Source: a virus. From it: 64,000 nt of DNA. The stretch spans positions 7,446-71,445 of IMG/VR virus record IMGVR_UViG_3300045044_000009. One strand, written 5' to 3'. Position 1 is the stretch's first letter, and every line of letters begins with the position of its first letter. Under the pieces are notes generated by a model. The model searched no databases, had not been told where the DNA came from, and worked only from the letters and a program-made list of their open reading frames with translations. Positions 25,728 through 39,617 of the stretch are shown one piece after another. A program made the translations under genes and the position numbers.

Positions 25728-25740
25728 GCGATCAGCGATT

Positions 25741-26010: not shown

Positions 26011-26022
26011 AGGAGACGGCCA

Positions 26023-26226
26023 GTGAACCTGAACATGCACAACGGCTACGTGATCCCGGTCACGACGGCTTACAGCCGGTTCGAGCAGCGCGACAAGCTG
26101 TCCCGTATCTGGCTGCTAGAAGCCATCGAAAGCCTGGAAGACGCCGCCGATCGCGATGAATACTCCCACATCGCCGATGATTGCCGCGCGATGGCGACTG
26201 TCCTGCGCGTCCAGATCGGCGCGTAA
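26023..26226 (+). CDS. Hypothetical early protein
   Basis: AGGAG RBS; 67-aa ORF. Confidence 0.55.
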   Translation: MNLNMHNGYVIPVTTAYSRFEQRDKLSRIWLLEAIESLEDAADRDEYSHIADDCRAMATVLRVQIGA

Positions 26227-26237
26227 CACGAAACCCA

Positions 26238-26273
26238 CCCCGCTACGCCGAGTAGCGGGGATTTCGTGTGCTC
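26238..26273 (+). repeat. GCCGA-loop hairpin element, copy 2
   Basis: Perfect 9-bp stem ccccgctac/gtagcgggg, loop gccga, then atttcgtgtgctc. Confidence 0.8.
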
Positions 26274-26335
26274 GCACACCTGCGAGCTATTGAACAAAAG
26301 GACAAGAGTATGACTACCAAGAACCGGGCGTCGCC

Positions 26336-26812
26336 ATGAGTGACGCCCTGACGCAACTCTCTCGCGTCCTCGGTATGCTTGGCTCGCAGCACGACGGCGA
26401 AGTCCTGAATGCTGCCAGACATGCTGAGAGGCTGCGCGTGAGGTTGAACAAGTCCTGGCCCGACCTGCTGAAAGGCGGCGGCGGTTCCGATGCCGACTAC
26501 ATGATGCGAGCGCTGCGGGCCGAACGGCTAGTGGCGCAATTGACGCAACGTGTAGAAGCATTGGAGCGCGAACTGCGCGGTCGTGCCGGGTCGATCACCG
26601 ACAGTCCCGATAATGGTGGGCTGTCGGCTGAGAAGGAGCGCGACTTGGTCGCTGCGCTGTCCCGATACTCGCATGACAGCGCGTGGGTCCGCGCCTTCAC
26701 TGGCTGGCCGAAAGGTGTCGTCGTCCTTTACACGCTGCAACGCATCGCCGCCAAACACGGCATGCGCGTGCAACAGTATGGACGCGGCAGCTATAAGTTC
26801 GTCCCTATCTGA
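26336..26812 (+). CDS. Protein with DUF2786-like N-terminus and winged-helix-like C-terminus
   Basis: RVLGMLGSQHDGEVLNAAR N-terminus (shared with 43625-44155); C-terminal FTGW...LQRIAAKHGMRV...SYKF. Confidence 0.6.
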   Translation: MSDALTQLSRVLGMLGSQHDGEVLNAARHAERLRVRLNKSWPDLLKGGGGSDADYMMRALRAERLVAQLTQRVEALERELRGRAGSITDSPDNGGLSAEKERDLVAALSRYSHDSAWVRAFTGWPKGVVVLYTLQRIAAKHGMRVQQYGRGSYKFVPI

Positions 26813-26821
26813 GAACGGAAA

Positions 26822-26857
26822 CCCCGTCGCGCCGAGCGGCGGGGATTTCGTGTGCTC
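26822..26857 (+). repeat. GCCGA-loop hairpin element, copy 3
   Basis: ccccgtcgc-gccga-gcggcgggg then atttcgtgtgctc, directly followed by the TTGAACAAAGGAC leader. Confidence 0.8.
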
Positions 26858-26880
26858 ATTGAACAAAGGACCAAATCACC

Positions 26881-27252
26881 ATGACATTCCGTGCATGGCT
26901 ATTTTGCATGGGCGCTTTCGTCATCCTGGCGCATCTTGTCGTATCGTCCATCGATCCGACCGCCGATCGCCTGCACGATGCACAGGACAAGGTTGAAACC
27001 TTGCAGCGTGCCAGCGCGAATGATCCGCCGTTGACTGCGGATCAGCGGCGTTACAACGCCCGGACGATCCAATGTCTCGCCGATGACCAAACGCTCGGCG
27101 CAGACCGCAATGTCTTCTTTCGACCTCCCTGCGGCCACACGATTGCTGGCGGCGGTGAGCGTGGCGAAGAAGCCCGCAAGCAATTGCCAGTAGCGTTGCG
27201 CGAGCTAGCAGCGGCGAAAGCCGCCTATGCGCAAGCTCACAAGCCGAACTGA
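26881..27252 (+). CDS. Putative membrane-anchored/exported early protein
   Basis: Hydrophobic N-terminus AWLFCMGAFVILAHLVVSS; leader motif upstream. Confidence 0.6.
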   Translation: MTFRAWLFCMGAFVILAHLVVSSIDPTADRLHDAQDKVETLQRASANDPPLTADQRRYNARTIQCLADDQTLGADRNVFFRPPCGHTIAGGGERGEEARKQLPVALRELAAAKAAYAQAHKPN

Positions 27253-27358
27253 ACACAGATGGCAGCGTCCGAAAGGGCGCTGTAATGGGCCACGCGTCCT
27301 GCGTGCCGGTCCACAGCCCGGATCAAACCATTCCATTGAACAAAGGACCAACCGACTA

Positions 27359-27655
27359 ATGTCTGCCAAGAACCATCCGTTTACCGTCGTGCTGATTGAG
27401 GGCAACGACAACGCGTCTCCGCATGAAATGGCGACCGAACCTGTGGTCTCCGTCGTGCGCGTATTCGCGAAGGGCAAAAGATCAGCCGTGACGGCTGCGG
27501 TCAAACAGGTCTCCGATGAAATCGCCGCAGGTTGCAGCGATAACGAAGATCCTGCCGAAATCCTGAGCGATTACCGCTGGCTGCCGATCGCGATATTTCG
27601 GGGTCATCCCGACGATCTCGCGGACGGCACCACATATGACTGGATGACCGCATAG
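27359..27655 (+). CDS. Hypothetical early protein
   Basis: ATG after the TTGAACAAAGGAC leader. Confidence 0.65.
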   Translation: MSAKNHPFTVVLIEGNDNASPHEMATEPVVSVVRVFAKGKRSAVTAAVKQVSDEIAAGCSDNEDPAEILSDYRWLPIAIFRGHPDDLADGTTYDWMTA

Positions 27656-27785
27656 AGTAGAGGCGACCTGCGACCGAGCGGGCCACGATGCGCGAGCGTC
27701 GTCGCCCCCTCGGCCTGGGCCGCAGTTGGCTACAGGGGCGACCGCCGAGCGCGGCGTCTAGCGTTGAACAAAAAGGACCAAAGCT

Positions 27786-28145
27786 ATGGCTACCAAGAAC
27801 ACTGCCCAGACTGCACCGCTGTCTCCGATCCAGAAGATGGCGGCTCGTGGGTTCGACCTCTTGCAGCGTGCCAACGGTGTCACGCGTGCGGAGTTGGTCG
27901 AACTGGGCAAGTCAGGCGGCGCGATCGGTTGGAAGAAGTATCTGACCATAATCGCTGCCAAGCAGGGTTTCGGCGACGAAGCCGTGAAGTCCTCCGACAT
28001 CGTGGAGGACGGCTACATCGTCGGCACCCGCTACACTCTCGCTGCCAAGAAGAAGGCGGCGAAGGTGGCGGCGACGCGCACCGCTTCGGCGGGACGCAAG
28101 GTCGCGGCAAAGAAGTCCGCTGCGAAGCGGACGCGTCGCGGCTGA
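27786..28145 (+). CDS. Winged-helix-like paralogue with histone-H1-like Ala/Lys tail
   Basis: LLQRANGVTRAEL...GWKKYL core, then AAKKKAAKVAATRTASAGRKVAAKKSAAKRTRRG. Confidence 0.7.
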   Translation: MATKNTAQTAPLSPIQKMAARGFDLLQRANGVTRAELVELGKSGGAIGWKKYLTIIAAKQGFGDEAVKSSDIVEDGYIVGTRYTLAAKKKAAKVAATRTASAGRKVAAKKSAAKRTRRG

Positions 28146-28167
28146 CCACACCAGTCTGACAGAAATC

Positions 28168-28196
28168 GGCGGGGGCTTCGGCTCCCGCCTTTTTTT
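28168..28196 (+). terminator. Rho-independent terminator
   Basis: ggcgggggc-ttcg-gctcccgcc followed by T7. Confidence 0.9.
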
Positions 28197-28327
28197 GTGT
28201 TCATGCGGTGGATACAAAACCATCCACGGCAGACAGTGTGCATACGAATGTGTCCCCTAGATAGAAGCATCGTGCGCGGTGCTTCTACCTCGGGTGACCG
28301 AGGGTCCAAGAACAGAAAGGACCATGC

Positions 28328-28837
28328 ATGCCAGACTTCAAGTCCATGAAAGACTTGTGGAACGAAACCTGGGCGTCACGCGATGAAGGCGAAACCGAAT
28401 TGAAGAAGGCTGGTTTCCCTGTATCGAGCGACGATCACGAATTAGGCGAGATAGGCGACGGTCGATGGCATCTGCGCAAGCCACTTGCGAAGAAGGCCAG
28501 CGGTCCGAAGCCCGGTCGCGAGACGTTGCGCAAGAAGGCGGCGCGGATGGCACAGGCAGATGAGCAAGCGCCCGCGTTCGCACAGGAGCCGGAGCCGAAG
28601 AAGAAGGCGAAGGCGCCTGCGAAGAAGGAGCGCGCTGTGCCGAAGCTGGACGCGATTGCCCGAGAGGGCGTTGAACTGGCGAAGCGCAAGCAGGGCGTTC
28701 CACGGCCTGATTTGCTGAAGCTCAACGATAACATCGGGTGGAAGTCCTATCTCGCACGCTACGGCAAGCGCGAAGGCTTGCGCGTAGAGGTCGAGAAGAA
28801 CAAGGACGACGTTATCGTCTACAAACTGGTCAAGTAG
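28328..28837 (+). CDS. Early protein with C-terminal winged-helix-like paralogous domain
   Basis: C-terminal LAKRKQGVPRPDL...IGWKSYL...VYKLVK matches paralogues 1-3; Lys/Ala-rich linker. Confidence 0.7.
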   Translation: MPDFKSMKDLWNETWASRDEGETELKKAGFPVSSDDHELGEIGDGRWHLRKPLAKKASGPKPGRETLRKKAARMAQADEQAPAFAQEPEPKKKAKAPAKKERAVPKLDAIAREGVELAKRKQGVPRPDLLKLNDNIGWKSYLARYGKREGLRVEVEKNKDDVIVYKLVK

Positions 28838-28847
28838 CCGAAACTCG

Positions 28848-28907
28848 GACGGAGTGGGCGCGGCATCTGCGGGTGTCGTGGCCCACTCCGCCTCAGTTTC
28901 GCTGGGG
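28848..28907 (+). repeat. Two-hairpin intergenic element (GA-stem1-stem2), copy A
   Basis: GA cggagtgggc...gcccactccg | cctcag-tttcg-ctgggg. Confidence 0.75.
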
Positions 28908-28951
28908 CCGCCGTAGAACGGCGGGGATTTAGAGCAGAAAGGTTATGCACC

Positions 28952-29185
28952 ATGAAACCCGACAAATCGGCGGGCGGTCGCTATTGGATGGGCAGTCAGC
29001 CCGAGCAATGCGACCTCTGCCAAGCGCCGCTGGACGGCGAGTTCGTTGACGGTGCCACAGTGCGTGGTCCGTGGGCGATGATGTGCGTCAAGTGTCATCG
29101 CATGTTTGGTCACGGCCTCGGAATGGGTCGCGGCCAGAGATATGAACTCGGCGATCAGGATCGCTGGTGGAAGACGGGAGGCTGA
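28952..29185 (+). CDS. Small zinc-finger protein
   Basis: CDLC...CVKCH. Confidence 0.65.
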   Translation: MKPDKSAGGRYWMGSQPEQCDLCQAPLDGEFVDGATVRGPWAMMCVKCHRMFGHGLGMGRGQRYELGDQDRWWKTGG

Positions 29186-29361
29186 CATGATGACAGTCGA
29201 TGAAGCCCGGCGGATTTGGAAGAGACTGCCGACGCCAGAAATCGAGGCAGAAGCCGAACGTCTAGTCGGAGAGGCACTGGATCACGGCTACGAACTCGAT
29301 CTGTCCGATCTGCTGTTCCTGGCCTTTTCCGCTGGCTTGAACGCCGCCGACAAGAACGCCT

Positions 29362-29424
29362 GACCCGAGAGGCGCGCATCCGAACAGGGTGCGTTGCCTC
29401 TCGGGCCTGTCGTTCACCGACAGG
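29362..29424 (+). repeat. Two-hairpin intergenic element, copy B
   Basis: GA cccgagaggc...gcctctcggg | cctgtcg-ttcac-cgacagg; both basal stems perfect. Confidence 0.8.
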
Positions 29425-29450
29425 GTTTCCGAACACGAAAGGACACGACT

Positions 29451-29813
29451 ATGGCAAGACCTGCCAAACCAAACCTTGATGCCTTGCTCCATCAACTGAA
29501 GCTGGCGTCCAACTCCGCACGCTCGGCGGTCCACGCCATGCAACTGCGTCAGTTGGAGCTTAACGAGCGGCAGATGCTTTCGCTGACCAACATGGCGGAA
29601 GAACTGATGGAGACGCGTCGTCGGTGCTTTGTATTGGCGACCGCCACCAGTGATCGCCTGTATGGCATCGTGGTTCCGAGTGCCGCCCGTTCCGGGTCGA
29701 TTGTCCACGCCCTGTCCCCTCGCGAGATCGATCGCAGGCGGCGCAAGGCGAAGGTGCCACCGACGAAGGAACAGGCCGAGCGTGACACCACACGGCGCAG
29801 CGCTCGCAGATAA
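29451..29813 (+). CDS. Hypothetical early protein
   Basis: ATG after the GAACACGAAAGGAC leader. Confidence 0.6.
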   Translation: MARPAKPNLDALLHQLKLASNSARSAVHAMQLRQLELNERQMLSLTNMAEELMETRRRCFVLATATSDRLYGIVVPSAARSGSIVHALSPREIDRRRRKAKVPPTKEQAERDTTRRSARR

Positions 29814-30059
29814 ACGGCACGAACGAGGACGGAGAAGACGTGAGTATGTCTATGGGGGAACTAGACATCAGGCGGCAATCGCGGCGGTTCGCTTTGTCGC
29901 TGCAATTGGATCAGCAGATCAGACGGAGCCGGGCGCTCCGTGTCTGGTCTGACATGCTCCGAATGGAAGCGGTGCAGGCGATCCTGCGATCGATCGAAGC
30001 CTGCACCGAAGCCAGACTTGCACGCCTGGGCAGGACGAAGAACCTGCCAGACTGACCGT

Positions 30060-30121
30060 GACGGAGCGGGCCTGCGTGGCAACGCGCAGCGCCCCCTCCG
30101 CCTCAGCCAGTCGGCTTGAGG
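30060..30121 (+). repeat. Two-hairpin intergenic element, copy C
   Basis: GA cggag...(GCAA loop)...ctccg | cctcagcc-agtc-ggcttgagg. Confidence 0.75.
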
Positions 30122-30155
30122 ACGTGCCTACCATTGAACAAAGGAACTACGGACT

Positions 30156-30647
30156 ATGAGTGAAACTACCACACCAGAGATATGCTCGATTTGCGGACGC
30201 CCGATCCCTCTTGTGGGAGATTGGGCGCATGGCGACAACGCTATGCCAATCACCGATGGACGTTGCTGCGGCGATTGCAATCAGAACATCGTCGTTCCGG
30301 AGCGGCTGAAGCGGATGCGAACCAAACAGGACCCGCGTCAAGTTAAGCCGTTTCATCCATTCCCCGGCACCGACGAACAGGTGGCGAAGGGGTGGATGAA
30401 TATCCTGCTGGAGCCGGAAGGCGACGGCGCTGCGGGCTACACTCAGCCATGCCCAGTGTGGCTGAATACCGCAGAGGTCCACAATCTGATTGTGATCTTG
30501 CAGAAGGATATCGATGGCCGTTCCTACTATGCCGAAGACGGCACGTATCTGCACGCCAAGCGGATGCTGGTCGAATTAGCAGAGAAGCTGGATGCGTCGT
30601 TTAAGTCGGCGCTCCGGGGTCACTATCGGGACGGACGGCGGCGATGA
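30156..30647 (+). CDS. Zinc-finger-containing early protein
   Basis: CSIC...CCGDC; leader motif upstream. Confidence 0.65.
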   Translation: MSETTTPEICSICGRPIPLVGDWAHGDNAMPITDGRCCGDCNQNIVVPERLKRMRTKQDPRQVKPFHPFPGTDEQVAKGWMNILLEPEGDGAAGYTQPCPVWLNTAEVHNLIVILQKDIDGRSYYAEDGTYLHAKRMLVELAEKLDASFKSALRGHYRDGRRR

Positions 30648-30928
30648 GATCACATTACTTCCTGATCGAGCATCCCACACGCGGCGTGTATTACTCGACC
30701 GAATACGAGTTCCATCCGCGTGGCTCTGTGCCGAAACATCACTTCTCCTGGTCCAAGCCGCGCACCGATCCTGGCATGAAGAGGTTCTACAACCTCGAAG
30801 AAGCCAAGCGGGTGTGCAGTTTGATGATGATCCGGGGATGCTACGTGCTCGAACTTTTCCGCGAGCGCGGCAAGCATCCGGTTCGTCATGTGCCGACCAA
30901 GGATGGATGGGTCGAGCGTAGCGACTGA
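30644..30928 (+). CDS. Hypothetical early protein
   Basis: ATGA-coupled to the upstream gene. Confidence 0.55.
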   Translation: MRSHYFLIEHPTRGVYYSTEYEFHPRGSVPKHHFSWSKPRTDPGMKRFYNLEEAKRVCSLMMIRGCYVLELFRERGKHPVRHVPTKDGWVERSD

Positions 30929-30932
30929 CCGT

Positions 30933-30989
30933 GACGGGGACGGCGCAGGCGAAAGTCTGTGGCCGTCGCCGCCTGGGCCAGTGTCCAGG
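30933..30989 (+). repeat. Two-hairpin intergenic element, copy D
   Basis: GA cgg...gacggc-gcaggc-gaaa-gtctgt-ggccgtc...ccg | cctgg...ccagg. Confidence 0.7.
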
Positions 30990-31028
30990 CACGCGTGAGC
31001 GTGTGAACAGGAAAGGACAAACTACACG

Positions 31029-31538
31029 ATGAAAGCCATTTTCATCGATGCCGTTAAGCAGGAATTCCGTGAGGTCGAATATGACGCCCTGGCATCCGCC
31101 AGCGGTGCCCCGACCATGCAGGATCACCTGGGAGGCTGGATCGACTGCGCTTTCCGGTTTCCGAACGGCGATGTGCTCTATGTGGACGAGGAAGGGTATC
31201 TGAAACCGACGATGCACTTTTTCATCTGCTCATTCCGCGCCGACCAGCCGATGGCTGGATGCGGAATAATTGTAGGCCGGGAAGTCGAGGACGACGATGC
31301 GCCGGGCGGGTTCTACACCCTTCCGCCGCAGACCAAGATCGACTGGCTGAAACGCAACATCGCCTGGATGACCCGCGAGGGTTTCGACCACTGGATGTCG
31401 CTGCACAAAGACGATCCTGCCGGTTACATCAAGATCGTGAATAGCAAGGGCGAGGTGGTTCGCACCGAAGTCCTGCACACGTATGGCGAACTGCATGACG
31501 GCATGAAGAAGGAGGCGGACAATGATACCGGGGCGTGA
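31029..31538 (+). CDS. DUF3846-like protein
   Basis: MKAIFID...LGGWID...GDVLYVDEEG.LK...MAGCGIIVG. Confidence 0.65.
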   Translation: MKAIFIDAVKQEFREVEYDALASASGAPTMQDHLGGWIDCAFRFPNGDVLYVDEEGYLKPTMHFFICSFRADQPMAGCGIIVGREVEDDDAPGGFYTLPPQTKIDWLKRNIAWMTREGFDHWMSLHKDDPAGYIKIVNSKGEVVRTEVLHTYGELHDGMKKEADNDTGA

Positions 31539-31941
31539 CAATCCAGACCTCGGCAATCAGATCCGTCGCCATCGCGAGCGGGCGAAACTGACCCGTTTCC
31601 AACTCGCCGAAAAGCTGGGCTGTTCCGACGCATTCATCGCCATGATTGAGCGCGGTAAGGGAAGGCCGGGACCGGACATCTACAATGGGTTGGTCGAGAT
31701 ATTCAACCACCCCGAGGTGGCCGAGCCTGCGACGCGTGTGCCGTTCAACGAGCGGGCGCAGGCAGCGGCGATACTGCACGAGCAGGATGGCATCCTGCGA
31801 CAGCAGCAAGAGGCCAGAGAGGTCACCGCCTTGCGCGAATTGACCGCTCGGGCAAGCGAGGTTCTGTCACTCGAAACCCTGATCCAGATGATTGTGGAGA
31901 AAGGCTACGAGGTGACGGTGACGAAGCGGACTTCGTCGTAG
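31522..31941 (+). CDS. XRE-family HTH DNA-binding protein
   Basis: IRRHRERAKLTRFQLAEKLGCSDAFIAMIERG; no S24 peptidase domain. Confidence 0.75.
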   Translation: MIPGRDNPDLGNQIRRHRERAKLTRFQLAEKLGCSDAFIAMIERGKGRPGPDIYNGLVEIFNHPEVAEPATRVPFNERAQAAAILHEQDGILRQQQEAREVTALRELTARASEVLSLETLIQMIVEKGYEVTVTKRTSS

Positions 31942-31954
31942 CGTTCCTGACCAG

Positions 31955-32019
31955 GACCAGAGCACCCCATGCAGCGATGCGTGGCGGTGCTGTGGCCTCG
32001 GCCAGACAATCTGCCGGGG
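31955..32019 (+). repeat. Two-hairpin intergenic element, copy E
   Basis: GA ccagagcacc...(GCGA loop)...ggtgctgtgg | cctcggc...gccgggg. Confidence 0.75.
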
Positions 32020-32053
32020 ACTTCACATTGAACCAGAGAGGACACTACACACC

Positions 32054-33223
32054 ATGGCTAAGAAGCCAGACAAGCGTGACAAGAGAGGACCCACGCTTGC
32101 CGACCGTGTGCTGGCTAGGACGCTTTCGGCGCATGAGAAAATCATCCATCCGAAGACCTACGACCAGCTTATGCAAGGCGTCCGCAGCGCCCACCGTTTC
32201 GTCTTTGACGAAGAGGCGGCGCGGCGGGTCGCCCAGGTCGTGCTGGACATCCCCTCGTTGTTGGTTCGCGAGCATGGCTTTGCCCGCGCGCCATTCGAGG
32301 TCACCTGGATCGAGTATCCTTCATACGCATACTGGAACAGGCTGCACGACGCCGACCCGGAACGCTATACCGGGCAAGGCGAATGGGGCGACAAATCGAC
32401 CGCCGATCACACGGTCGGCTACCTGATCGACCACAACCGCATCAACACGTTCGTTGGCGGCACGGTGACGGAGCCTGATCTGCTGCCGGATATCACGCCG
32501 ATGCAGTATCGGCTGCGCACCGAGTGGGATGTCAACGACCAGATCGAGTTCGCTCGGCTGGTCGGGTGCTCCCGCATGATGCTGGACATGATCATGTGGG
32601 GCAGCACCTATGACGTGCTGTCCGACGACGAACGCAGGCTGCTCCGTGCCTACAACGTGATGGAGCAGACGCCGCTGAACCCGAGCCATCGCACATATCA
32701 CACCCTGACGGCAGATGCCGGCATGGGGGCGGCAGCGCGTGGCTCGGTCGGCGACATGCGCACCATCATCGCCCTGCTGTTGATGCTCAACCGACCGTCG
32801 CTGACCACCTACAAGCAGACATTGCCCAATTCGCACGGGTTCATCCGTGGCAAATACCGGGCGTATCTGAACCATACGACAGTGACGATTGCGATCGATC
32901 CGGTGCCGACCCTACGATTGGTCGGGACGCCTGCCGGTGACGCGGTGGCGCGTCGCAGACATGAGGTGCGCGGTCACTACGCGCACAACAGGGAAGCGCG
33001 AGACTATGCCAAGATCGCCGGTTGCATCCACAATTTCGAGCCGAACCACGGACCGCCCAAGTGGCTGCCGTGGCCCGATGCCGGACCTGACGACCCGGAC
33101 AATTGGGTGTGCTCGGAATGCGGCGGCAAGCGCTGGTGGATACCGGAGCACGAGCGTGGGGACGAAAGCCTCGGCTACGTCATCCACGACGAATACAATG
33201 TGGTCCGTCGCCATAAATACTGA
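32054..33223 (+). CDS. Uncharacterised phage protein with C-terminal RRHEVRGH and CxxC motifs
   Basis: 389-aa ORF with leader motif; RRRHEVRGHYAH, CSECGG, WWIPEHERG. Confidence 0.7.
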   Translation: MAKKPDKRDKRGPTLADRVLARTLSAHEKIIHPKTYDQLMQGVRSAHRFVFDEEAARRVAQVVLDIPSLLVREHGFARAPFEVTWIEYPSYAYWNRLHDADPERYTGQGEWGDKSTADHTVGYLIDHNRINTFVGGTVTEPDLLPDITPMQYRLRTEWDVNDQIEFARLVGCSRMMLDMIMWGSTYDVLSDDERRLLRAYNVMEQTPLNPSHRTYHTLTADAGMGAAARGSVGDMRTIIALLLMLNRPSLTTYKQTLPNSHGFIRGKYRAYLNHTTVTIAIDPVPTLRLVGTPAGDAVARRRHEVRGHYAHNREARDYAKIAGCIHNFEPNHGPPKWLPWPDAGPDDPDNWVCSECGGKRWWIPEHERGDESLGYVIHDEYNVVRRHKY

Positions 33224-33227
33224 TCCT

Positions 33228-33292
33228 GACGGAAACAGCGGCGCCCGTAGAACGCGGGCGTCGGCTGCTTCCGCCTCGATCAGAGATCGAGG
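33228..33292 (+). repeat. Two-hairpin intergenic element, copy F
   Basis: GA cggaa.cagc...gctg.ttccg | cctcgatc-aga-gatcgagg. Confidence 0.75.
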
Positions 33293-33332
33293 GCATCGGC
33301 ATAGTGCCGGTGTGACAGAGGGAAAACACCAT

Positions 33333-33995
33333 ATGAAGAAAGCACTGCTAGCCGCAAGTGTGCTCGGCGGGATGGCGCTTGCCGTCTCGCCTGTGCATGC
33401 TGGTCAGATCATCAATTTTGCCCAGGTGGGCAATGCCTCTGATGTGACGGCCACGGACACCGCTGGGGTGACAACCATCTCCATCAGCGGCGCTCTGGTG
33501 ACGGTATCGGCTATCTCCCCAGATAGCTCGATCTCTGCGCCAGTGGCGGCAGACGTGACGTTGAATGCCACGAGCATCGATGCCGCCCAGGCTATCGGGG
33601 CGTCGATCTTGCAGCACTACAGCGGCACGTTCTCGGTGACGACGGCGGTTGGCGGCGTCAACCTCCTGAGCGGTTCCTTCACTGACGCGGCGTTTGGCGC
33701 TGGTGGCGGTCCTGGTCTGGTGGTGAACGTCAACAATCCGCCTGACACCCTGAACTTCAACAGTGCGACGATACCGGCGAAGGATTTGCTACCGCCGTCA
33801 TCGTTGAACTTTGGGTTCACGGCGTTGACGAACCCGCTGGCGATCGTCAACGGGTCGATCGGTAGCTTTGGCGCGGCCTTCATCGGCAACGCCAGTGCCA
33901 CCCCGCAGGCTGCGGCTCCGGAGCCTGCGACGCTCGGGCTGCTCGGTGTCGGTCTGCTTGGCACCGTCGCACTCGCGCGCCGTCGTCGCGCCTAA
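33333..33995 (+). CDS. PEP-CTERM sorting-domain protein
   Basis: Start MKKALLAASVLGGMALAVSPVHA (signal peptide); C-terminal APEPATLGLLGVGLLGTVALARRRRA. Confidence 0.9.
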   Translation: MKKALLAASVLGGMALAVSPVHAGQIINFAQVGNASDVTATDTAGVTTISISGALVTVSAISPDSSISAPVAADVTLNATSIDAAQAIGASILQHYSGTFSVTTAVGGVNLLSGSFTDAAFGAGGGPGLVVNVNNPPDTLNFNSATIPAKDLLPPSSLNFGFTALTNPLAIVNGSIGSFGAAFIGNASATPQAAAPEPATLGLLGVGLLGTVALARRRRA

Positions 33996-34022
33996 CAAGT
34001 CTCGTTTACGCTAGACTAACGG

Positions 34023-34052
34023 GGGAGGGCCTTGTGCCCTCCCTTTCTTTTT
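34023..34052 (+). terminator. Rho-independent terminator
   Basis: gggagggc-cttgt-gccctccc then tttcttttt, after the PEP-CTERM gene. Confidence 0.85.
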
Positions 34053-34060
34053 CTGATCCG

Positions 34061-34107
34061 GACGCAGGTAGCATACGCTATCTGCGCCTCGACCAGAGTG
34101 GACGGGG
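34061..34107 (+). repeat. Two-hairpin intergenic element, copy G
   Basis: GA cgcaggtagc-atac-gctatctgcg | cctcg...cgggg. Confidence 0.75.
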
Positions 34108-34127
34108 AATGAACAGAAGGACACTGA

Positions 34128-34610
34128 ATGACAATACCACCAGCATTTTTCGAGGCCATCGAGGATACGTCTGTGCCGTTCAGAAAGCGGCTACAGCACG
34201 CGATTTCGATGACCACTGGCGATGCGGAACACGCCGCCGAAATCAAGGCACATCCCCGCTGGGATGCCTGGGTCAGTAAGAACCGGGCCGCCCTGACAAG
34301 GTTTCGCAACCGCATGGCTGAGAAGATCGAGAAGGGCGATGCCGACGGTGTTCCCTTCTCGGAGATGGTCGAAAGGCCGTTGATCCGAGCGATCCTCGAA
34401 AGGATGCGACAGACCGGCGAAATCGACCGCACTCTGTCCAAGGTTATCGATGGCGTGACACCGGCTCATTGGACCCTGATTTACACCAGCGATGAAGGTG
34501 TCAGCATCCTCACGTCCCTGTCGGTCGAAAATACCATCGACCTCCTGGAAAACACCGTGGAGGGGATGAAGAGTGGGGACAAATTGATCAATCGGGGTCG
34601 ACCCCGATGA
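34128..34610 (+). CDS. Hypothetical early protein
   Basis: ATG after the TGAACAGAAGGAC leader. Confidence 0.65.
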   Translation: MTIPPAFFEAIEDTSVPFRKRLQHAISMTTGDAEHAAEIKAHPRWDAWVSKNRAALTRFRNRMAEKIEKGDADGVPFSEMVERPLIRAILERMRQTGEIDRTLSKVIDGVTPAHWTLIYTSDEGVSILTSLSVENTIDLLENTVEGMKSGDKLINRGRPR

Positions 34611-34876
34611 CGCTCGGTGAATATGTCGCTGACCGCTCCCTCAAGGAAATAATTGAGGGGAAGGCGCAGAAACCGACCACCAAGCGGATACTGCGTCGCT
34701 GCCTGCCGTCGCTGAAACAGGTGGTCGATAGCGTCGCCTCGCCAGAAGCGGGCGGCATGGCGCTTTCCAGAACCTCAGGCACAAGCAGCTTAGAAGTCCT
34801 GACGCCAGGGGCCTGCGCTTAACGGCGCAGCGCCCTTTGCGCCAGCACTTCGCTGGAAACTGAGAAAGGACACCAA

Positions 34877-35314
34877 ATGCTTAAAGACAAGCTGCCGCCC
34901 AGGGGGTCGTTTGACTACCTTCTGGACGGCAACGCCTACCACGATGAACCGCCGCAACCGCCTCGCAAAGAGGATCCACGGCGGGTCAAGATCGAGATCG
35001 AGATCATCGAACGGCAGCAAGGCCGCAAGGCCGAGCGCCGTCAGGATCGTCGCTCTGCGCTGTGGTGGATTGTCGGCGCGATGATCGGCGTGGCGCTGGT
35101 CGCATCGATGCGGCACGCACACGGCGAGCAGCGCTGGCAGGAGAACCGCGTGGGCAATCAGACCTACTGGTATAACCCAGAGACCGGCGTGCGAGGCCAG
35201 GAGTGGCCGATGCCGGACGGGTCTGTGCGCAGCACTTGGCAGGACCCGTCAGGTCACGTCAAGGACTGCGTGGTCCAGCGGTTCGGAAACGCCGTCAGCA
35301 CAAGGTGCCAGTGA
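34877..35314 (+). CDS. Single-pass membrane protein
   Basis: ALWWIVGAMIGVALVASM transmembrane segment, then a small Trp-rich domain with two Cys; followed by two tiny TM ORFs (35311-35406, 35403-35510). Confidence 0.65.
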   Translation: MLKDKLPPRGSFDYLLDGNAYHDEPPQPPRKEDPRRVKIEIEIIERQQGRKAERRQDRRSALWWIVGAMIGVALVASMRHAHGEQRWQENRVGNQTYWYNPETGVRGQEWPMPDGSVRSTWQDPSGHVKDCVVQRFGNAVSTRCQ

Positions 35315-35514
35315 GGCGCTGGATACCGGCGGCTGTGATGGCCGCCGTTGTCTGGGCGGTCGTAATCGTCTGCCTCCTCGTTCTGAAGGAGCTTCATCAA
35401 CGATGATCGGGTTTCTGATAGCTGGCGGCGTAGTCATCGCGCTCGCCGTGCTGATCTATATCGTCATGTGCGTAGCAGGACAGGCAGTCGAAGACCACTC
35501 CAACGACTGATCTG

Positions 35515-35565
35515 GATGAGAGCAGCGCGGGCCTCGCCCGTGGCTGCTGTCACCCCGATCAGGGG
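35515..35565 (+). repeat. Two-hairpin intergenic element, copy H (covariant)
   Basis: GA tga.agcagc...gctgct.tca | cccc-gatca-gggg; the basal CGG/CCG pair is replaced by TGA/TCA. Confidence 0.65.
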
Positions 35566-35585
35566 AACAGCAGAGGGACACCAAA

Positions 35586-36206
35586 ATGACCAAACCAAAG
35601 ATGCGTCGTGCCGTCGATAAGGACGGCAATATCGATTGGCTGAAGCAGACGCGCTTCGATTACCACTTTGCCAAGACGGCGCTACTTTCGCAGGGCAGCG
35701 TGGCTCCGATGTATATCGTCCACAGCAGGAACGGCATCATACCGATCCTGGCGACATATAACGACGGCGCGCAGAAGAATGCCGTGCATAACGTGGTGCG
35801 GATGTTCTGCATCGCAGAAGACGCCGACGCCGTCGGATATATCGGTGAGGCGTGGTCTGCGAAAGCGATGCCAGAAGATGCCGCACACCCCGATCGACCG
35901 ACCGTGATGCCGAAAGACCGCGAGGATCGCATGGAGGTCGTCGTGTGCCAGATTATCTATCGTGGCCTGGATGGCCCTATGGGCACATTCATGCAAGGCG
36001 AGATCGACCGTGATACCAGCGGCAAGGCAGTTGGGCTCATCAACGAGATGTCGGCACAAAGCCATCAGATCGGTGGCTCATTCGCCGATTTACTGCCACC
36101 GCGTCGCCCAACACCAGCAGAGCAACAGGCGGCGCGAACGCTGCTGAAGATGTTCCAGCAGCACGGCGGCATGCAGCAATTCGATGACCCGGCAGGTCGC
36201 GCATGA
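35586..36206 (+). CDS. Hypothetical early protein
   Basis: 206-aa ORF with leader motif; YIGEAW motif. Confidence 0.65.
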   Translation: MTKPKMRRAVDKDGNIDWLKQTRFDYHFAKTALLSQGSVAPMYIVHSRNGIIPILATYNDGAQKNAVHNVVRMFCIAEDADAVGYIGEAWSAKAMPEDAAHPDRPTVMPKDREDRMEVVVCQIIYRGLDGPMGTFMQGEIDRDTSGKAVGLINEMSAQSHQIGGSFADLLPPRRPTPAEQQAARTLLKMFQQHGGMQQFDDPAGRA

Positions 36207-36392
36207 TCAATCCACGCGACTGCGCCATGGTGGTCGAGGGTATCACCGTGCTCTCCGATCTGCTGCTGGATATGGCAGACGGTGCCGAGGACAGTGATGC
36301 CGACTTCCTGCAAGCCCTCGCGGGCAAGCTACGCGAAATCATGGCGGTGATCGAAGCCTACGAGCGAAAGGGACGACGGATGAACTGACTTT

Positions 36393-36451
36393 GACGGGGA
36401 CAGCGCCGCAGACGCCGCGCTTTCCTCGCCTCAGCCAGGAGCGGTCTGAGG
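36393..36451 (+). repeat. Two-hairpin intergenic element, copy I
   Basis: GA cgggga.agcgc...gcgct.tcctcg | cctcag...ctgagg. Confidence 0.7.
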
Positions 36452-36476
36452 AAACTGAACAGAAAGGACAAACTGA

Positions 36477-37526
36477 ATGGTAACTCCGGGTTTTATCAAG
36501 TCACCGGACGGATCGGTCGTGTTCGGTGCCGAGATGCCCTTCGACCCGCTGAACCTGGAATGGCGACCGACCGTCGCCCAGGTGCGCGAAGCCATCCTGG
36601 CGTATCACGTCACCGGCTTCAACGACACCGGATTGCCGCTCTTGCCGGAAAGCAAGGACTACGCGGCGACCCAGTGGGAGGTGCATCGCATGAGTGCCTT
36701 GTGCCGCGATGCGGTGCAGGCTGGGCGGTTCATCGATTTCGGCCATCTGCCGAATGCGGTGATCAAGTCCTGCTCGATGCGTGGCGGCGATATGTGGAAC
36801 GCGGGTGCCCTCGGGTTTCCGTTTCGCGATCCATGGATCTGCTACCACACATGGGATCATGACGTGCCGCGTTTGGCTGAGATAGAAGCCGAATTCGGCC
36901 CACGCGATCCTGCGCCAGCCGTGGCGGTCTATCTGGTCAATCAGCCCGCAGATGAGATATTCGAGGTCTGCGAGCTACAGCCGATCAGGTTCGCCACCGA
37001 ATGCCTTCTGGTGATCGGTGACCGCGGGCATTTCAAGGTGCCGGAAAGTCGCGTCGGCCATTTATCGATGATCGCACCGAGCATGGTGCGGTTCATTGAT
37101 GATGACCACGCCCGATCGATCCAGAACAACGGCCAGACGCCGCATCAGGCAGCCGCAGCGAATATCGGTGATCCGGTAATTACCTGCGTGCTGATCCTGG
37201 CGACGCGCGGTGTCGGTCGTGAGACCATCAAGGCTGATGCCAAGCTACAGCGTGCCAGGGCGAAGAACCGCAAGCCACCAATCCCTGACTATGATCGGGT
37301 GGATACCAAGCCGTATGTTACCGCCGTTCTGTCCCGAGGACAGCGCGAACGGAGCGAGGGCCTGGGCGGCACACACGCCAGTCCGCAGTTTCACATCCGC
37401 ATGGGCCATCCGAGGCACTACGCCACGGGTCGGTCGATCTGGATCGCGGACACCTTGGTCAACGCGACCGAGGAGCAGCGGCGCAGCTTCAAGTCGAACC
37501 GCAGTCACTACGCGGTGCGGCCATGA
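36477..37526 (+). CDS. Uncharacterised phage protein with C-terminal HASPxxHxRxGH motif
   Basis: 349-aa ORF after the TGAACAGAAAGGAC leader; HASPQFHIRMGHPRHY. Confidence 0.7.
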   Translation: MVTPGFIKSPDGSVVFGAEMPFDPLNLEWRPTVAQVREAILAYHVTGFNDTGLPLLPESKDYAATQWEVHRMSALCRDAVQAGRFIDFGHLPNAVIKSCSMRGGDMWNAGALGFPFRDPWICYHTWDHDVPRLAEIEAEFGPRDPAPAVAVYLVNQPADEIFEVCELQPIRFATECLLVIGDRGHFKVPESRVGHLSMIAPSMVRFIDDDHARSIQNNGQTPHQAAAANIGDPVITCVLILATRGVGRETIKADAKLQRARAKNRKPPIPDYDRVDTKPYVTAVLSRGQRERSEGLGGTHASPQFHIRMGHPRHYATGRSIWIADTLVNATEEQRRSFKSNRSHYAVRP

Positions 37527-37949
37527 CCAGGACGACGGAATGCCTACTGATGACGATCATCGTCCTGTCGGTGATCGACAGCGCCGTTATGACCTTCCGG
37601 ATAATGGCATGGTTTGTGCGATGAGCGATGACAAGGAAGACTTCGCCGAGGTGTTCGAGGTAGTCGCCAAAATCAGACCGTTGCTTGCAGGCAGGAGCCC
37701 TGCGTTCCAAGGCTCCGTCATTGCCGAACTGGCATCGATCTGGCTGTCTGGATACATCGGCGAAAACGACGAACATACCGCCAAGATACGGGCAAAAGTC
37801 CTCTCACTGCATATGAATATGATCCTGGACCTGACCCTCGCGGAGGACATAGCGCGCGAGGCGACGAAACACTGATGCCTGGGGCCGGTGCGGCAACGCA
37901 CCGTGCTCCATGCACCAGCGCTTCGCTGGGAACCGAGAAAGGACACCGA

Positions 37950-38183
37950 ATGACGGACAGTCGTCTACTGACATCCGAATTGATAGTGGACTTCATGAGC
38001 CACACGATGCCGGAACCGGCAGAGTGGATTTTGGTCTGGCGACCTACTCACAACAGCGTCGGTCAGGCCATCTCGCATCTCGATCGCCAAACCGCGATGG
38101 ACCTGCTGAGAATGGCACTCCATCGGCTTGATACGTTGGCTCCTGCCGACGTTTACGTGGTCAAGCCGAGGGAGCCGCACTGA
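37950..38183 (+). CDS. Hypothetical early protein
   Basis: ATG after the GAACCGAGAAAGGAC leader. Confidence 0.55.
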   Translation: MTDSRLLTSELIVDFMSHTMPEPAEWILVWRPTHNSVGQAISHLDRQTAMDLLRMALHRLDTLAPADVYVVKPREPH

Positions 38184-38516
38184 TGGAAGGCATCGCAAAA
38201 GGCACGCTGCACAGCAGGGCGGAATGGATCGAAATCCTACGGAACCAGCCATTGTTCAACATGACGCGGCTGATCCTCAATAGCCTGTCGGGCTACGGCG
38301 TGAACCACGACCAGGATCGGATGACGCTGAGCGCCGCCCTGGAAGCGGTGGTTCAGATCGCTCGGGACGTTCCGACATGGAAGGAACACCCATGATTAGC
38401 TTCAAGACGTGGCTCATGACCGGCACCAGCCATCGGTCGGTGATGTGGCTCGAACTGCCGATGATACTGCGCCGCTGGCTGATGCAGATGGCGGCACACG
38501 CAAGGGAGGGGCAGGC

Positions 38517-38729
38517 ATGAGCGATCACCCCTGCCGCATCTTTCAATACATGCACTGCCGTAAGTGCCTGGAGGAACTGCCCGCTGGGGTCTCGCCACAA
38601 ACGTGGTCGAGAAACGAGTGCGGCTGGACGCCGCAGGGCTTCCAGGTGTGGTGCCGACGACACGACTGCAATGTGGTCGATCTAGACTTCATGGGGCAGA
38701 AGGTGCAGCCATGGCGACCGCGTAGCTGA
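38517..38729 (+). CDS. Small Cys-rich protein
   Basis: HCRKC...VWCRRHDC; last gene before the terminator. Confidence 0.6.
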   Translation: MSDHPCRIFQYMHCRKCLEELPAGVSPQTWSRNECGWTPQGFQVWCRRHDCNVVDLDFMGQKVQPWRPRS

Positions 38730-38766
38730 CATACCAAAGGGATCAGATCAGGCGATAACGCAATGC

Positions 38767-38800
38767 ACCCCGCATGGCTTCGGCTGTGCGGGGGTTTTTT
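38767..38800 (+). terminator. Rho-independent terminator ending the early region
   Basis: ccccgcatggc-ttcg-gctgtgcgggg followed by T6. Confidence 0.9.
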
Positions 38801-39080
38801 GTGCTCCGCCGTCAGAGCCACCTATCCGTGACGGTAAGAAACCCTGCCACCGCTCATATTGCGCGGTCAAGCGTTCGTGTGCCCAAGATGTGGCACCGAG
38901 CCGGGCCGAGGGACATGCGACCTCGACCCGACTGGCTCATTGAACAGAAAGGACACCTGACGGGAGCGGCGACCCTGCGGGGTATAGCTCCCCGCACCAC
39001 CATCCTGGCTTGCGCTTTCACCGAGCCACCGTGGTCAAGTGCCACGACTATGTGGTCTCACCACGAGTTATGCAAGCAAA

Positions 39081-39617
39081 TCATGGCTTTCGGGTAGCTC
39101 CTAACCATCGCTTGCCGCGCAAGTCCTGGCTGCCTCTGCGAGGCCCCATGCGCAGATAGCCATCGATCACGGGCGGCGTCGCCGGACCGATGTAGTCCAG
39201 ATGTGCCATATCCTTCGGTTCCACGAAGCAGCCCAGGTAGCTGATCACCCACATTTCCAGGCTGTCGTCCCAGGGGCGCTTGCCCTGATCATCAGACAGC
39301 ACGCCAACGCCTGACCACTGCGCCATCATGAGCACGCCGGTCTCCGGCCACATGACCCAATGGAAGCCGTGGTCGGTCTTCGGCGGCACACCGGGTCGGC
39401 GAGGGTCGGGCCAACCGCGCCCGACGCTGCGAGCTGGATCATCCTCTAGCGGAGTGCCCATGGCTGGGACGTGCTGCCACAGCCAGCGCGCCGTCTCGAA
39501 CCGCGTCGTAGGCTCGCCGTCTATGTCCTTGATCCTCACCCCGTCCGGGCCGATGGCGTCCATCAGCTTCACGAAGGCAGTATGAGCCTCCTCGATGTCC
39601 TTCCTGCCGACCATCAC
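39081..39617 (-). CDS. Hypothetical protein
   Basis: 178-aa ORF coupled to the DUF6456-like gene. Confidence 0.55.
   Translation of the reverse strand: MMVGRKDIEEAHTAFVKLMDAIGPDGVRIKDIDGEPTTRFETARWLWQHVPAMGTPLEDDPARSVGRGWPDPRRPGVPPKTDHGFHWVMWPETGVLMMAQWSGVGVLSDDQGKRPWDDSLEMWVISYLGCFVEPKDMAHLDYIGPATPPVIDGYLRMGPRRGSQDLRGKRWLGATRKP

Follow-up and report, generated by a model that had tools for sequence, protein, structure and literature searches.

The DNA analysed here is a window of 64,000 nt from the 75-kb genome of an uncultured soil phage. An early operon occupies its + strand from about 25,400 to 39,000 (window coordinates); most of the early proteins lack Pfam matches, and the phage also encodes an Erf-like annealing protein. 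At the start of every gene block of the operon stands the leader (U)GAACA(G)AAAGGAC(A/C)..AUG, which is conserved even beyond its SD sequence. No sigma-70-like promoters were found between 25,000 and 39,500, where 3.9 were expected, and none in the gaps between genes, suggesting that the early genes are co-transcribed. Intrinsic terminators are present within the operon at 28168, 34021 and 38768. In one RNA library, only three contigs of 165-280 nt touch the early region, with three short matches of 33-280 nt.

The gaps hold copies of a structured element, placed strictly between the upstream stop codon and the SD leader. The initial annotation proposed a family of at least nine such elements; they do form one real family, with 12 members in the window (G of the GA at 27672, 28848, 29362, 30060, 30933, 31955, 33228, 34061, 34801, 35515, 36393 and 37874), as the three copies it had listed as weaker (near 27660, 34820 and 37880) have the same architecture as the nine firm ones. 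A covariance model identified about 44 copies in five phage contigs. The window accounts for 12 of them and one relative for about 17; the other three are metagenome contigs, which carry 9, 5 and 1. In all five contigs the element is restricted to the sense strand of early operons, and matches to model R1 across the 75-kb genome are likewise confined to the sense strand of the early operon, antisense echoes scoring about 30 bits lower. Some more distant relatives have compact operons with no gaps, and the relative L420 (57% identity) carries promoter repeats in its gaps instead of the element. No Rfam 15 family matches the element, in line with the earlier remark that it was not a described motif, and on sequence comparison it appears to be a structured RNA without previous description.

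The consensus begins with six nucleotides containing the upstream stop codon (usually C-UGA-Y-N), followed by NN, GA and stem 1, and continues with CC, NN, a second set of six nucleotides and, further on, GG-A before the purine-rich leader, SD and ATG. Stem 1 consists of 3 bp, a 1x1 loop, 6 bp, a 3' bulge and a variable top. The layout originally described (GA, stem 1, a CC...GG hairpin without spacer, and an optional third hairpin) holds, except that the stop codon is itself part of the element and that a third helix had been missed. When 25 copies are aligned with MAFFT, pairing in stem 1 amounts to 98% and nine of ten pairs change on both sides, a level of covariation matched by 0/500 shuffles; slid controls were 39-57% paired. 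In the cmsearch alignment of 41 rows, pairing reaches 98.4% and compensatory changes occur at all nine varying pairs, which confirms the basal-pair covariation noted at first. The CC..GG closure of hairpin 2 is present in 36/36 copies, its outer four pairs are formed in 36/36, 36/36, 35/36 and 36/36, and its pairs 3 and 4 occur as four standard types (U.G 14, U-A 9, A-U 7, C-G 5) and two types (C-G 23, G-C 13), respectively. The 36 copies also fold more strongly than dinucleotide shuffles (mean MFE z-score -3.7, range -6.1 to -1.4). Such folding, with an unstructured leader after each copy, and the observation that orthologous genes are preceded by elements which themselves look orthologous and drift through compensatory changes, might be expected of generic structural spacers that insulate ribosome-binding sites, pause RNA polymerase or block exonucleases without specific recognition, their shared sequence reflecting descent from one duplicated unit. 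This explanation is improbable, as stability alone hardly accounts for the invariant GA/CC, for fixed irregularities such as the 1x1 loop and the bulge, or for two mutually exclusive helices that are each kept by covariation.

The missed helix, termed L, is formed by the six nucleotides with the stop codon and the first six nucleotides of the hairpin 2 region, so that the two-hairpin form has a competitor in one long hairpin; both the helix and the competition are new relative to the earlier description. In the alignment used for this test (A3), whose model was built without the L helix, all six pairs change on both sides (e.g. CUGAUC/GAUCAG, GAAACU/AGUUUC and CUAACC/GGUUAG), pair 7/75 being C-G 21 times and U-A 19 times. 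Slid controls were 26-45% paired, and two independent permutation tests gave 0/10,000 and 0/5,000. The partner strand tracks the stop codon, UGA being paired with YCA, and UAA with UUA in L419. Two folds of the element RNA, both well supported, compete with each other. In the L form a single long hairpin with interruptions runs from the 6-bp helix with the stop codon at its base, through a 4x4 internal loop (NNGA/CCNN), into stem 1, whose 3 bp, 1x1 loop and 6 bp make up a fixed segment of 10 positions ending at the 3' bulge; in the T form stem 1 abuts hairpin 2 with its invariant closure. Their energies are 0-8 kcal/mol apart in the 36 copies, L being the unconstrained MFE structure in 13/36 and better than the T-constrained fold in 15/36. 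In 11/36 copies the L helix and hairpin 2 are mutually exclusive, since the linker would be only 0-1 nt.

The copies in the window, all on the + strand, illustrate this variation. The divergent copy at 27663-27738, parsed by hand around a partial R1 match (27672-27721, 21.5 bits), comprises GA (27672-27673), stem 1 (27674-27713), CC (27714-27715) and a candidate L helix, GCGACC (27663-27668, with a 3-nt spacer) with GGCCGC (27718-27723). At 28840-28907 (R1 46.5 bits; z = -5.5) the L helix is wholly different, GAAACU/AGUUUC, and stem 1 (28850-28890) and hairpin 2 (28891-28907) are followed by a third hairpin. The GA is supplied by the stop codon UGA in two copies: one at 29354-29424 (G at 29362), missed by R1 and parsed by fold and sequence into stem 1 (29364-29405), hairpin 2 (29406-29424) and L helix GAACG/CGUUC, and one at 37866-37929 (37.6 bits), with a GAU..ACC base and hairpin 2 CCAGCG CUU CGCUGG. 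The copy at 30052-30121 (57.3 bits) shows the order CUGACC (stop UGA), GU, GA, stem 1 (30062-30100), CC, UC, AGCCAG and hairpin 2 to 30121. The L helix CUGACC/GGCCAG is found at 30925-30989 (60.1 bits; stem 1 30935-30971, GAAA loop, then a third hairpin) and at 31947-32019 (55.0 bits), the latter copy preceding a 389-aa gene and having C-G, not G-C, at columns 14/68 above the closing C-G (GACC..GGCC). Perfect CUGAUC/GAUCAG helices occur at 33220-33292 (53.8 bits; z = -5.8; stem 1 33230-33273), before a PEP-CTERM gene, and at 35507-35565 (57.4 bits), where hairpin 2 is short (CCCC GAUCA GGGG) and the predicted minimum-energy fold is the long hairpin (L -39.1 vs T -33.1 kcal/mol). The shortest copy, at 34053-34107 (53.0 bits; stem 1 of 10 bp), is located directly 3' of the terminator at 34021-34045, keeps CUGAUC with no ORF ending there, and is homologous to L125:9900-9997. 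At 34793-34856 (40.4 bits; L helix GAAGU/ACUUC, hairpin 2 CCAGC..GCUGG) the upstream stop codon UAA (34820-34822) is in the stem 1 apical loop. The copy at 36385-36451 (51.8 bits), which precedes a 349-aa gene, has a U-A pair in place of the usual C-G in its L helix, CUGACU/AGCCAG.

The involvement of the stop codon raises the possibility, in our view a doubtful one, of a termination-sensing switch that couples cistrons. A ribosome stopping at the UGA would have to melt the base of stem 1 as well as the L helix, and in the resulting two-hairpin form the abutting bases of stem 1 and hairpin 2 would bring the stop codon within a few nucleotides, in space, of the next SD, favouring re-initiation or otherwise setting downstream translation. 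Such a device would make sense of the fixed stop-codon register (in most copies UGA begins 7 nt ahead of GA, and in the rest the two overlap), of its pairing with a partner that changes along with the codon, of the near-isoenergetic folds and of the exclusion of hairpin 2 by the L helix in 11/36 copies. However, the SD and purine-rich leader are unpaired in both folds, so that an output is not apparent, the 5' flank and the leader show no cognate signal in their complementarity (p = 0.33), and the stop-codon overlap could be mere compaction. Moreover, copies immediately 3' of terminators retain CUGAUC or CUGAUU although no ORF ends there.

Several nucleotides are conserved beyond the needs of pairing. 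GA and CC are invariant in 39/39 sense-strand copies, and in the cmsearch alignment the stem 1 pairs C22-G60 (39/41 rows) and G21-C61 (36/41) are nearly so, with the 3' bulge at a fixed 10-position distance. Together with the leader conservation beyond the SD and the terminators within the operon, this might suggest an operator at which a trans-acting protein recognises the GA/CC loop and, within stem 1, the AGC/bulge/GCU segment, either an early translation regulator like T4 RegA or a processive-antitermination factor or RNA polymerase contact like HK022 put. An operator is nevertheless unlikely: no RNA-binding protein candidate was identified, 12-17 copies are far above the usage of put or nut systems, and several copies are downstream, not upstream, of terminators. 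HK022 put consists of two adjacent stem-loops with irregularities in the nascent phage transcript, and to that extent resembles the element. Put, however, has two copies per genome, which precede terminators, and its target is RNA polymerase, whereas the element is present in 12-17 copies that each keep a locked position relative to a stop codon and SD, several of them lying just past a terminator. No match to a put model was found in Rfam, and put is set apart from the element by description. The initial reading was upheld as to a structured element on the transcribed strand; its put and PeSL analogies fail as memberships, nothing linking the element to RNA polymerase in the case of put.

PeSL of T4-type phages combine an early promoter with a terminator stem-loop (Arbiol et al. 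2010, PMC2839356; PMC4122927), and share with the element the repetition of composite motifs at the edges of small early genes and an association with modular shuffling, for which the element offers one element-leader block joined to different genes in two phages. The gaps studied here contain neither promoter-like hexamers nor a U-tract, and an element without a promoter is not a PeSL. In Cluster K mycobacteriophages, a conserved start-associated sequence with an SD (SAS) follows, at many genes, an inverted repeat of variable spacer length (ESAS); there are 11-19 copies per genome, in one orientation and at non-structural genes only, with no assigned function. RNA pairing finds no support in how the two ESAS arms depart from the repeat, and DNA-binding proteins are the explanation preferred in that study (Pope et al. 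2011, PMC3203893). The element is similar in having a conserved SD-containing start sequence preceded by an inverted repeat, in many copies and one orientation, but differs in sequence and host phylum and in its pervasive compensatory changes.

As to the strand on which the element acts, assignment by G.U against A.C counts was rejected (32 vs 73 in stem 1 and the L helix), and folding is equally good on both strands. Stem 1 is capped by a GNRA loop in 9/36 copies and by a UNCG loop in 6/36, much as the initial annotation had indicated, and together with the U.G pairs of hairpin 2 these tetraloops favour RNA of the sense strand; covariation and loops alike support an element under structural constraint on the transcribed strand. 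A DNA-level site, attC-like or PeSL-like in effect, at which an imperfect palindrome folds in single-stranded DNA or provides a homology patch for recombinational shuffling of early cassettes, would fit the equal folding of both strands, the Erf-like protein, and two conserved A.C mismatches that become G.U pairs on the antisense strand. Early-gene content is mosaic among three phages, and at least one terminator-element-leader block is joined to different genes in two phages: the relative has it before a 385-aa gene, and its homologue in the window precedes another gene. This provides some evidence that units of element plus leader re-assort relative to genes, in the direction of the portable modules suggested initially. 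Even so, we regard a DNA-level site as very unlikely: the attC core (GTTRRRY/RYYYAAC) is absent, no reverse complement of the 15/36 tetraloops qualifies (by inspection), the U.G pairs are mismatches on the opposite strand, the stop-codon and SD register indicates mRNA, and shuffling may be a by-product of repeated sequence.

An equivalent gap of the same operon is occupied by a type-P5 twister ribozyme (27254-27321, + strand; Rfam RF02684, full model, 40.9 bits vs gathering score 37.6), which starts 2 nt past the stop codon of the gene at 26881-27252 and is followed by the same leader and an ATG at 27359. The relative has a hammerhead-like match between two genes and a twister-like match 5' of its first early gene. 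Arrays of self-cleaving ribozymes flank genes in prophage polycistronic RNAs (Perreault et al. 2011, PMC3088659). Arrays of hammerhead, twister and pistol ribozymes resemble the element in their slot between a stop codon and the ribosome-binding site that follows it, in their many copies per operon and in their occurrence in soil and alphaproteobacterial-type phages, and twister and hammerhead-like motifs coexist with the element in these genomes. The element differs in matching no Rfam 15 ribozyme model and in having very few invariant nucleotides. It could represent a new self-cleaving class, in which the L helix and outer hairpin 2 form an H-type pseudoknot around stem 1 with the invariant GA strand in its core; the shared slot, the clustering of known classes in phage operons, the lack of an Rfam match and a linker long enough in 19/36 copies are compatible with this. 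A new class is improbable, however, with merely four invariant nucleotides, far below known small ribozymes, with highly variable stem tops, and with a pseudoknot impossible in 11/36 conserved copies. Self-cleaving ribozymes in equivalent slots accord with a role in RNA processing or stabilisation, and an element in the ribozyme slot of related phages most likely marks cutting or stabilisation of the early message.

We tentatively prefer, at somewhat less than even confidence, to regard the element as an intercistronic punctuation signal of polycistronic early transcripts that defines and protects mRNA ends. The L form would arise first during transcription, because its strands precede the 3' arm of hairpin 2 in synthesis, and with about 20-32 stacked positions it would suit a double-strand-specific endonuclease, most likely host RNase III, as the phage encodes none. 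When RNase III cuts a single strand at an internal loop, a stabilising 3' hairpin remains (PMC3867540). A cut at or near the conserved internal loop on the 3' side, as at T7 early sites, would leave the upstream mRNA ending in stem 1, a hairpin that protects its 3' terminus, and the freed downstream RNA could refold into hairpin 2, placing a base-paired 5' end before the unstructured purine-rich leader and SD. The twister ribozyme would fill the same role through self-cleavage in one gap. Invariant nucleotides are rarely required at RNase III sites, and against processing the invariant GA/CC, the AGC/GCU segment with its bulge and the stop register hint at a more specific partner or at translation coupling. 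Two further observations run counter to processing: three copies come immediately 3' of intrinsic terminators, so that their upstream RNA already ends in a 3' hairpin, and both DNA strands fold equally well.

The T7 early-region RNase III sites (R0.3-R1.3) are likewise gap hairpins of a polycistronic early transcript, with a lower stem, internal loop and upper stem, and the 3'-terminal protective hairpin proposed here for the upstream mRNA is a further likeness. The two have no sequence relation, and RNase III cleavage of the element is a proposal. Only in the element are GA/CC invariant, does hairpin 2 compete for the 3' strand of the lower stem, and is the stop codon part of that stem.

Early operons of phages commonly yield messages of gene size by cutting, which in T7 is done by host RNase III and in many uncultured phages by self-cleaving ribozyme arrays. 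The two-hairpin element is a candidate RNA punctuation of phage early operons, and a third, previously undescribed occupant of the same gap slot as ribozymes and RNase III sites. Folding of each gap gave GA, a long irregular stem 1, an adjoining hairpin 2 closed by CC..GG, an optional third hairpin and a purine-rich leader. This single architecture, which the initial annotation had described for nine gaps within 28848-36451, fits all nine and also the three copies regarded there as weak. The element is compact and modular (55-80 nt), and the anatomy of its stem 1 is fixed (3 bp, a 1x1 loop, 6 bp ending in RGC/GCY and a single 3' bulge), with a top above the bulge that varies in length and sequence.

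When 25 copies taken from the window and from the relative L125 (IMGVR_UViG_3300036846_000489) were aligned with MAFFT, the ten aligned stem 1 pairs proved 98% paired, and nine of them have changed on both sides, a level of covariation reached by none of 500 shuffles, with slid controls only 39-57% paired; the covarying stems proposed from the sequence are thus borne out. Likewise, 36 parsed copies are on average 3.7 SD more stable than their dinucleotide shuffles, so that the folds exceed shuffled expectation as anticipated. The outer four pairs of hairpin 2 are formed in 36/36, 36/36, 35/36 and 36/36 copies, with four standard pair types at pair 3 and two at pair 4. Stem 1 is capped by a GNRA loop in nine copies and by a UNCG loop in six (15 of 36), in agreement with the earlier remark that such loops are common in the family. 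The only invariant nucleotides are G, A, C and C, and the flanks are conserved as CUGAYN ... NRYCAG and GA ... CC. Stem 1 and the L helix described below contain 32 G.U against 73 A.C wobbles on the sense strand; these counts do not discriminate between the strands, both of which fold equally well, and the argument that G.U pairs prove the sense strand was withdrawn. Sense-strand RNA is favoured by the tetraloops, the U.G pairs of hairpin 2 and the fixed register of stop codon and SD.

The flank upstream of GA takes part in a second, competing fold. Paired to the inner hairpin 2 segment of the same copy, its 16 nt give -7.8 kcal/mol, against -6.0 kcal/mol with that of other copies, and this cognate advantage was reached in 0 of 5,000 permutations; masking of the SD by the 5' flank was rejected, as it gave no cognate signal. 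The resulting L helix joins two 6-nt strands in a fixed register, one at -8 to -3 relative to the G of GA and the other at +5 to +10 after stem 1. Its 5' strand is usually C-UGA-Y-N, which includes the stop codon of the upstream gene. Common versions are CUGACC with GGCCAG, and CUGAUC with GAUCAG or GACCAG; others are CUGACU with AGCCAG, CUGAUU with AACCAG, GAAACU with AGUUUC (at 28840), GAAGU with ACUUC, CAAAC with GUUUG, GAACG with CGUUC (at 29354) and, in the metagenome contig L419, CUAACC with GGUUAG, where the stop codon is UAA. Among 41 cmsearch matches aligned with a model that did not contain the L helix, all six of its pairs have changed on both sides, and pair 7/75 is C-G in 21 and U-A in 19 with one exception. 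In the same alignment 85.8% of L helix cells are paired, against 26-45% in slid controls, almost all of the shortfall being a recurrent A.C opposite the A of UGA.

With the L helix added beneath stem 1, across a 4x4 internal loop (NNGA over CCNN), a single long hairpin results, termed the L form. The L helix and the inner part of hairpin 2 need the same nucleotides; hairpin 2 and stem 1 together make up the T form. For the L helix and the four outer pairs of hairpin 2 to join in an H-type pseudoknot the linker must be long enough: 19 of 36 copies, with at least 4 nt, would allow it, 11, with 0-1 nt, would not, and six have 2-3 nt. Under constrained folding the L and T forms lie 0-8 kcal/mol apart; of 36 copies, 13 have an L form equal to the unconstrained MFE, and in 15 the L form is better than the T-constrained fold. 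Both folds have been maintained in evolution, and the element is presumably bistable, with predicted interconversion of L and T in vivo.

By analogy with T7, the element may be an intercistronic processing and stability signal, which is our tentatively preferred reading. The L form resembles a T7-type RNase III site in being an interrupted duplex of about two turns (lower stem, internal loop, upper stem), as its 6-bp helix, 4x4 loop and stem 1 (23-48 nt) add up to ~20-32 stacked positions. A single-strand cut by RNase III at an internal loop is reported to yield a stabilising 3' hairpin (PMC3867540). For the element, we infer a cut-and-refold mechanism as a whole: host RNase III would cut one strand at the internal loop, the upstream mRNA would then be capped by stem 1, and the freed 3' strand would refold as hairpin 2, with the new 5' end buried by the invariant CC..GG immediately ahead of the open leader. 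The enzyme would have to be that of the host, since no RNase III gene was found in the phage; a search for a phage-encoded DUF3489 gave no match, its controls being silent as well. The main rival is that the element senses upstream translation, in that a terminating ribosome must melt L and would thereby favour T; the stop codon is indeed paired in the L form, but the SD is unpaired in both folds, and we regard such a sensor as unlikely. That the elements are generic spacers is a quite improbable rival.

Ribozymes occupy equivalent gaps. A search of the window against Rfam 15 at gathering thresholds, including the twister, hammerhead, pistol, hatchet, twister-sister, HDV-like and hairpin ribozyme families, returned a twister-P5 ribozyme at 27254-27321 as its sole match, and the element matched no family, consistent with the initial view that it is not a described motif. 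When 25000-39500 was scanned permissively (E up to 10), nothing fell on the 12 elements except one chance-level antisense match (mir-1538, 21.7 bits, E 2.4, 35515-35554). The twister-P5 ribozyme (RF02684, 40.9 bits against a gathering score of 37.6) is full-length with the P5 stem included and lies on the + strand in the gap 27253-27358, between genes 26881-27252 and 27359-27655, where the element is absent; it begins 2 nt past the stop codon, and the leader common to the early gene blocks comes after it. Its loop reads CCACAGCC against the consensus CCCAAGCC, and the activity of the predicted ribozyme is therefore uncertain. In L125, a hammerhead type III-like sequence at 902-956 (+) scores 41.5 bits, below the gathering score of 48.5, with the core CCGAUGAG and C at position U4, and lies between two + strand genes behind a capping hairpin. 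A twister-P1-like sequence at 3355-3418 (+) of L125 (32 bits, well below the gathering score) lies ~20 nt 5' of the first early gene; no twister was found in the 5' UTR of the first window gene. Hammerhead arrays flank genes in prophage polycistronic RNAs, and processing to gene-length mRNAs has been proposed for them (Perreault et al., PMC3088659). The element itself could belong to a new self-cleaving ribozyme class, with a core formed by the invariant GA strand and a CC..GG pseudoknot, which we consider doubtful. It is a similarly distant prospect that most of the twister and hammerhead ribozymes found in early operons of related soil phages have in this lineage given way to the element, as a small self-cleaving ribozyme of a hitherto unknown class or as a ribozyme-like site with an active fold under the control of the terminating ribosome.

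Several known systems share the layout or the position of the element. The PeSL cassettes (PMC2839356), to which it had been likened, are parallel in gap position, but they consist of an early promoter (-35/-10) and a stem-loop terminator, and neither a sigma-70-like promoter nor a terminator was found in the element. A scan for intrinsic terminators called none of the 12 elements, although it did detect those at 28168, 34021 and 38768 and also hairpins with a GCCGA loop; the elements are followed by purine-rich sequence, not a U-tract. The SAS/ESAS of Cluster K mycobacteriophages are analogous in layout; however, SAS is a 13-bp GGGATAGGAGCCC at starts, whereas the leader of the element is GAACAGAAAGGAC, and ESAS is a 17-bp inverted repeat of conserved sequence whose arms are without RNA-type covariation (PMC3203893), unlike those of the element. 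HK022 put, compared by layout alone, is a pair of stem-loops whose binding to RNA polymerase suppresses terminators further downstream; the copy number of the element and its positions past terminators speak against put, and a put-like antiterminator or a protein operator is improbable. Integron attC sites have R''/R' cores RYYYAAC ... GTTRRRY and fold as the bottom strand with extrahelical bases; the element flanks do not contain GTTRRRY, and its GNRA/UNCG loops point to the sense strand. The proteins seen (terminase, portal, tape measure, primase-helicase) are those of a siphovirus, with no virion RNA polymerase among them, and N4-type hairpin promoters were therefore discarded. An RNase P substrate (Y|G..C-R-CC as -1/+1/72/73-75) was dropped, as CC pairs with GG in hairpin 2 and GA/CC lie in the internal loop.

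The source record (75,005 bp, IMG/VR, rated 100% complete), of which the window comprises bases 7446-71445, encodes a large terminase, portal, head protease, tape measure, tail fibres, primase-helicase and Erf-like annealing protein, and the phage is therefore a siphovirus. The closest cultured terminases are those of Rhizobium phages (56% identity), megablast against GenBank phages gave no match, and the DNA runs containing the phage sequence are soil metagenomes. No RNA runs matched a 10-kb stretch of the phage; one soil metatranscriptome gave three matching contigs of 165-280 nt. Two contigs of the soil metatranscriptome run X7 match 32851-33130 and 38929-39093 at 100% identity, which indicates presence in an RNA library only, and they may be carried-over DNA.

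Small, mostly unannotatable genes form a run on the + strand at ~25,400-39,000, the annotated exceptions encoding an HTH protein, a DUF3846 protein and a PEP-CTERM protein. The three intrinsic terminators split this early operon, and 25000-39500 contains no sigma-70-like sites against 3.9 expected, for a consensus that may not be the promoter type of the host. Every early gene block opens with the conserved leader (U)GAACA(G)AAAGGAC(A/C)-N-AUG. Its reverse complement, TGAACAGAGGTTAAAGGACACACCA, heads a divergently transcribed gene at ~25357-25385 (-), so the leader serves both sides of a divergent control region, and it is likewise found on the divergent side at ~3300-3330 of L125. The gaps of the first transcription unit, from which the two-hairpin element is absent, hold three GCCGA-loop hairpins (25741-25765, 26238-26260 and 26822-26844, all +) that are terminator-like by consensus scan, each followed by ATTTCGTGTG(CTC) and then the early leader; the optional third hairpin of an element, at 28908-28930, resembles them, with the tail GGGGATTT.

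Across the whole genome, the covariance model of the element matches the sense strand of the early operon only. L125 (75,088 bp; its 385-aa and 347-aa proteins are 72% and 63% identical) has ~17 copies, and the same model found nine in the metagenome contig L288, five in L419 and one in L289, a contig that is richer in GC and has a leader of another kind. No other IMG/VR contigs qualified by the model, and a pattern scan followed by covariance-model screening left no convincing site in species-representative genomes (GTDB). The loose DNA pattern TGACGG..CCGCCTCRG, the leader alone and the GTDB scan gave mostly chance matches in GC-rich DNA, and none of the candidates from GTDB or from a stricter viral-contig pattern was retained by the model. 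Matches in three further contigs (L387, L330, L366) were rejected as they lie inside coding sequence, and G002, from the same metagenome and with one leader match, is unrelated as to the element. Relatives carrying the 389-aa protein at ~54% identity have tightly packed operons from which the gaps are absent. In L420 (JGI Ga0495477_0010011; 57% identity in this protein), gaps near 860, 1930 and 5030 contain, in place of hairpin elements, a repeated promoter-like motif, CTTGACAGAATC-N-TTCCGTGGTA, also written CTTGACAGAATC..GTGGTA. The element is therefore an innovation of a narrow lineage.

Gene content is mosaic among the window, L125 and L288. A terminator-element-leader block at 9900-9997 of L125, before the gene for the 385-aa protein, is 76% identical to 34022-34124, which precedes an unrelated gene, and the element 5' of the gene for the 389-aa protein matches L125:4783-4850, there before another gene. 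Element units therefore re-assort, in line with the portable modules suggested at the outset, although this may be a by-product of repeated sequence; a DNA-level recombination site is most improbable.

The element is unusually testable, as it has two alternative folds that are each preserved by compensatory mutation, and the pairing of the upstream stop codon in one of them is a built-in link from translation termination to RNA structure. If it is an RNase site, ribozymes and nuclease sites would be interchangeable solutions inside one operon; if it is self-cleaving or senses termination, it would represent a new RNA mechanism. As a compact modular element it is also a candidate insulator or processing part for synthetic operons.

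Two of the early genes deserve mention. The 389-aa protein (32054-33223, +) is conserved, without a Pfam domain, and has >130 metagenomic relatives; its homologue in Planktothrix phage Pag-Yong1 (39% identity) carries the GenBank annotation 'anti-CRISPR protein', and its C-terminus has CxxC motifs, one fragment being named rubredoxin by JGI. The PEP-CTERM gene unit (33333-34045, +) has an element on one side and a strong intrinsic terminator on the other; 7 nt past the terminator the next element begins, and the unit looks like an inserted moron.
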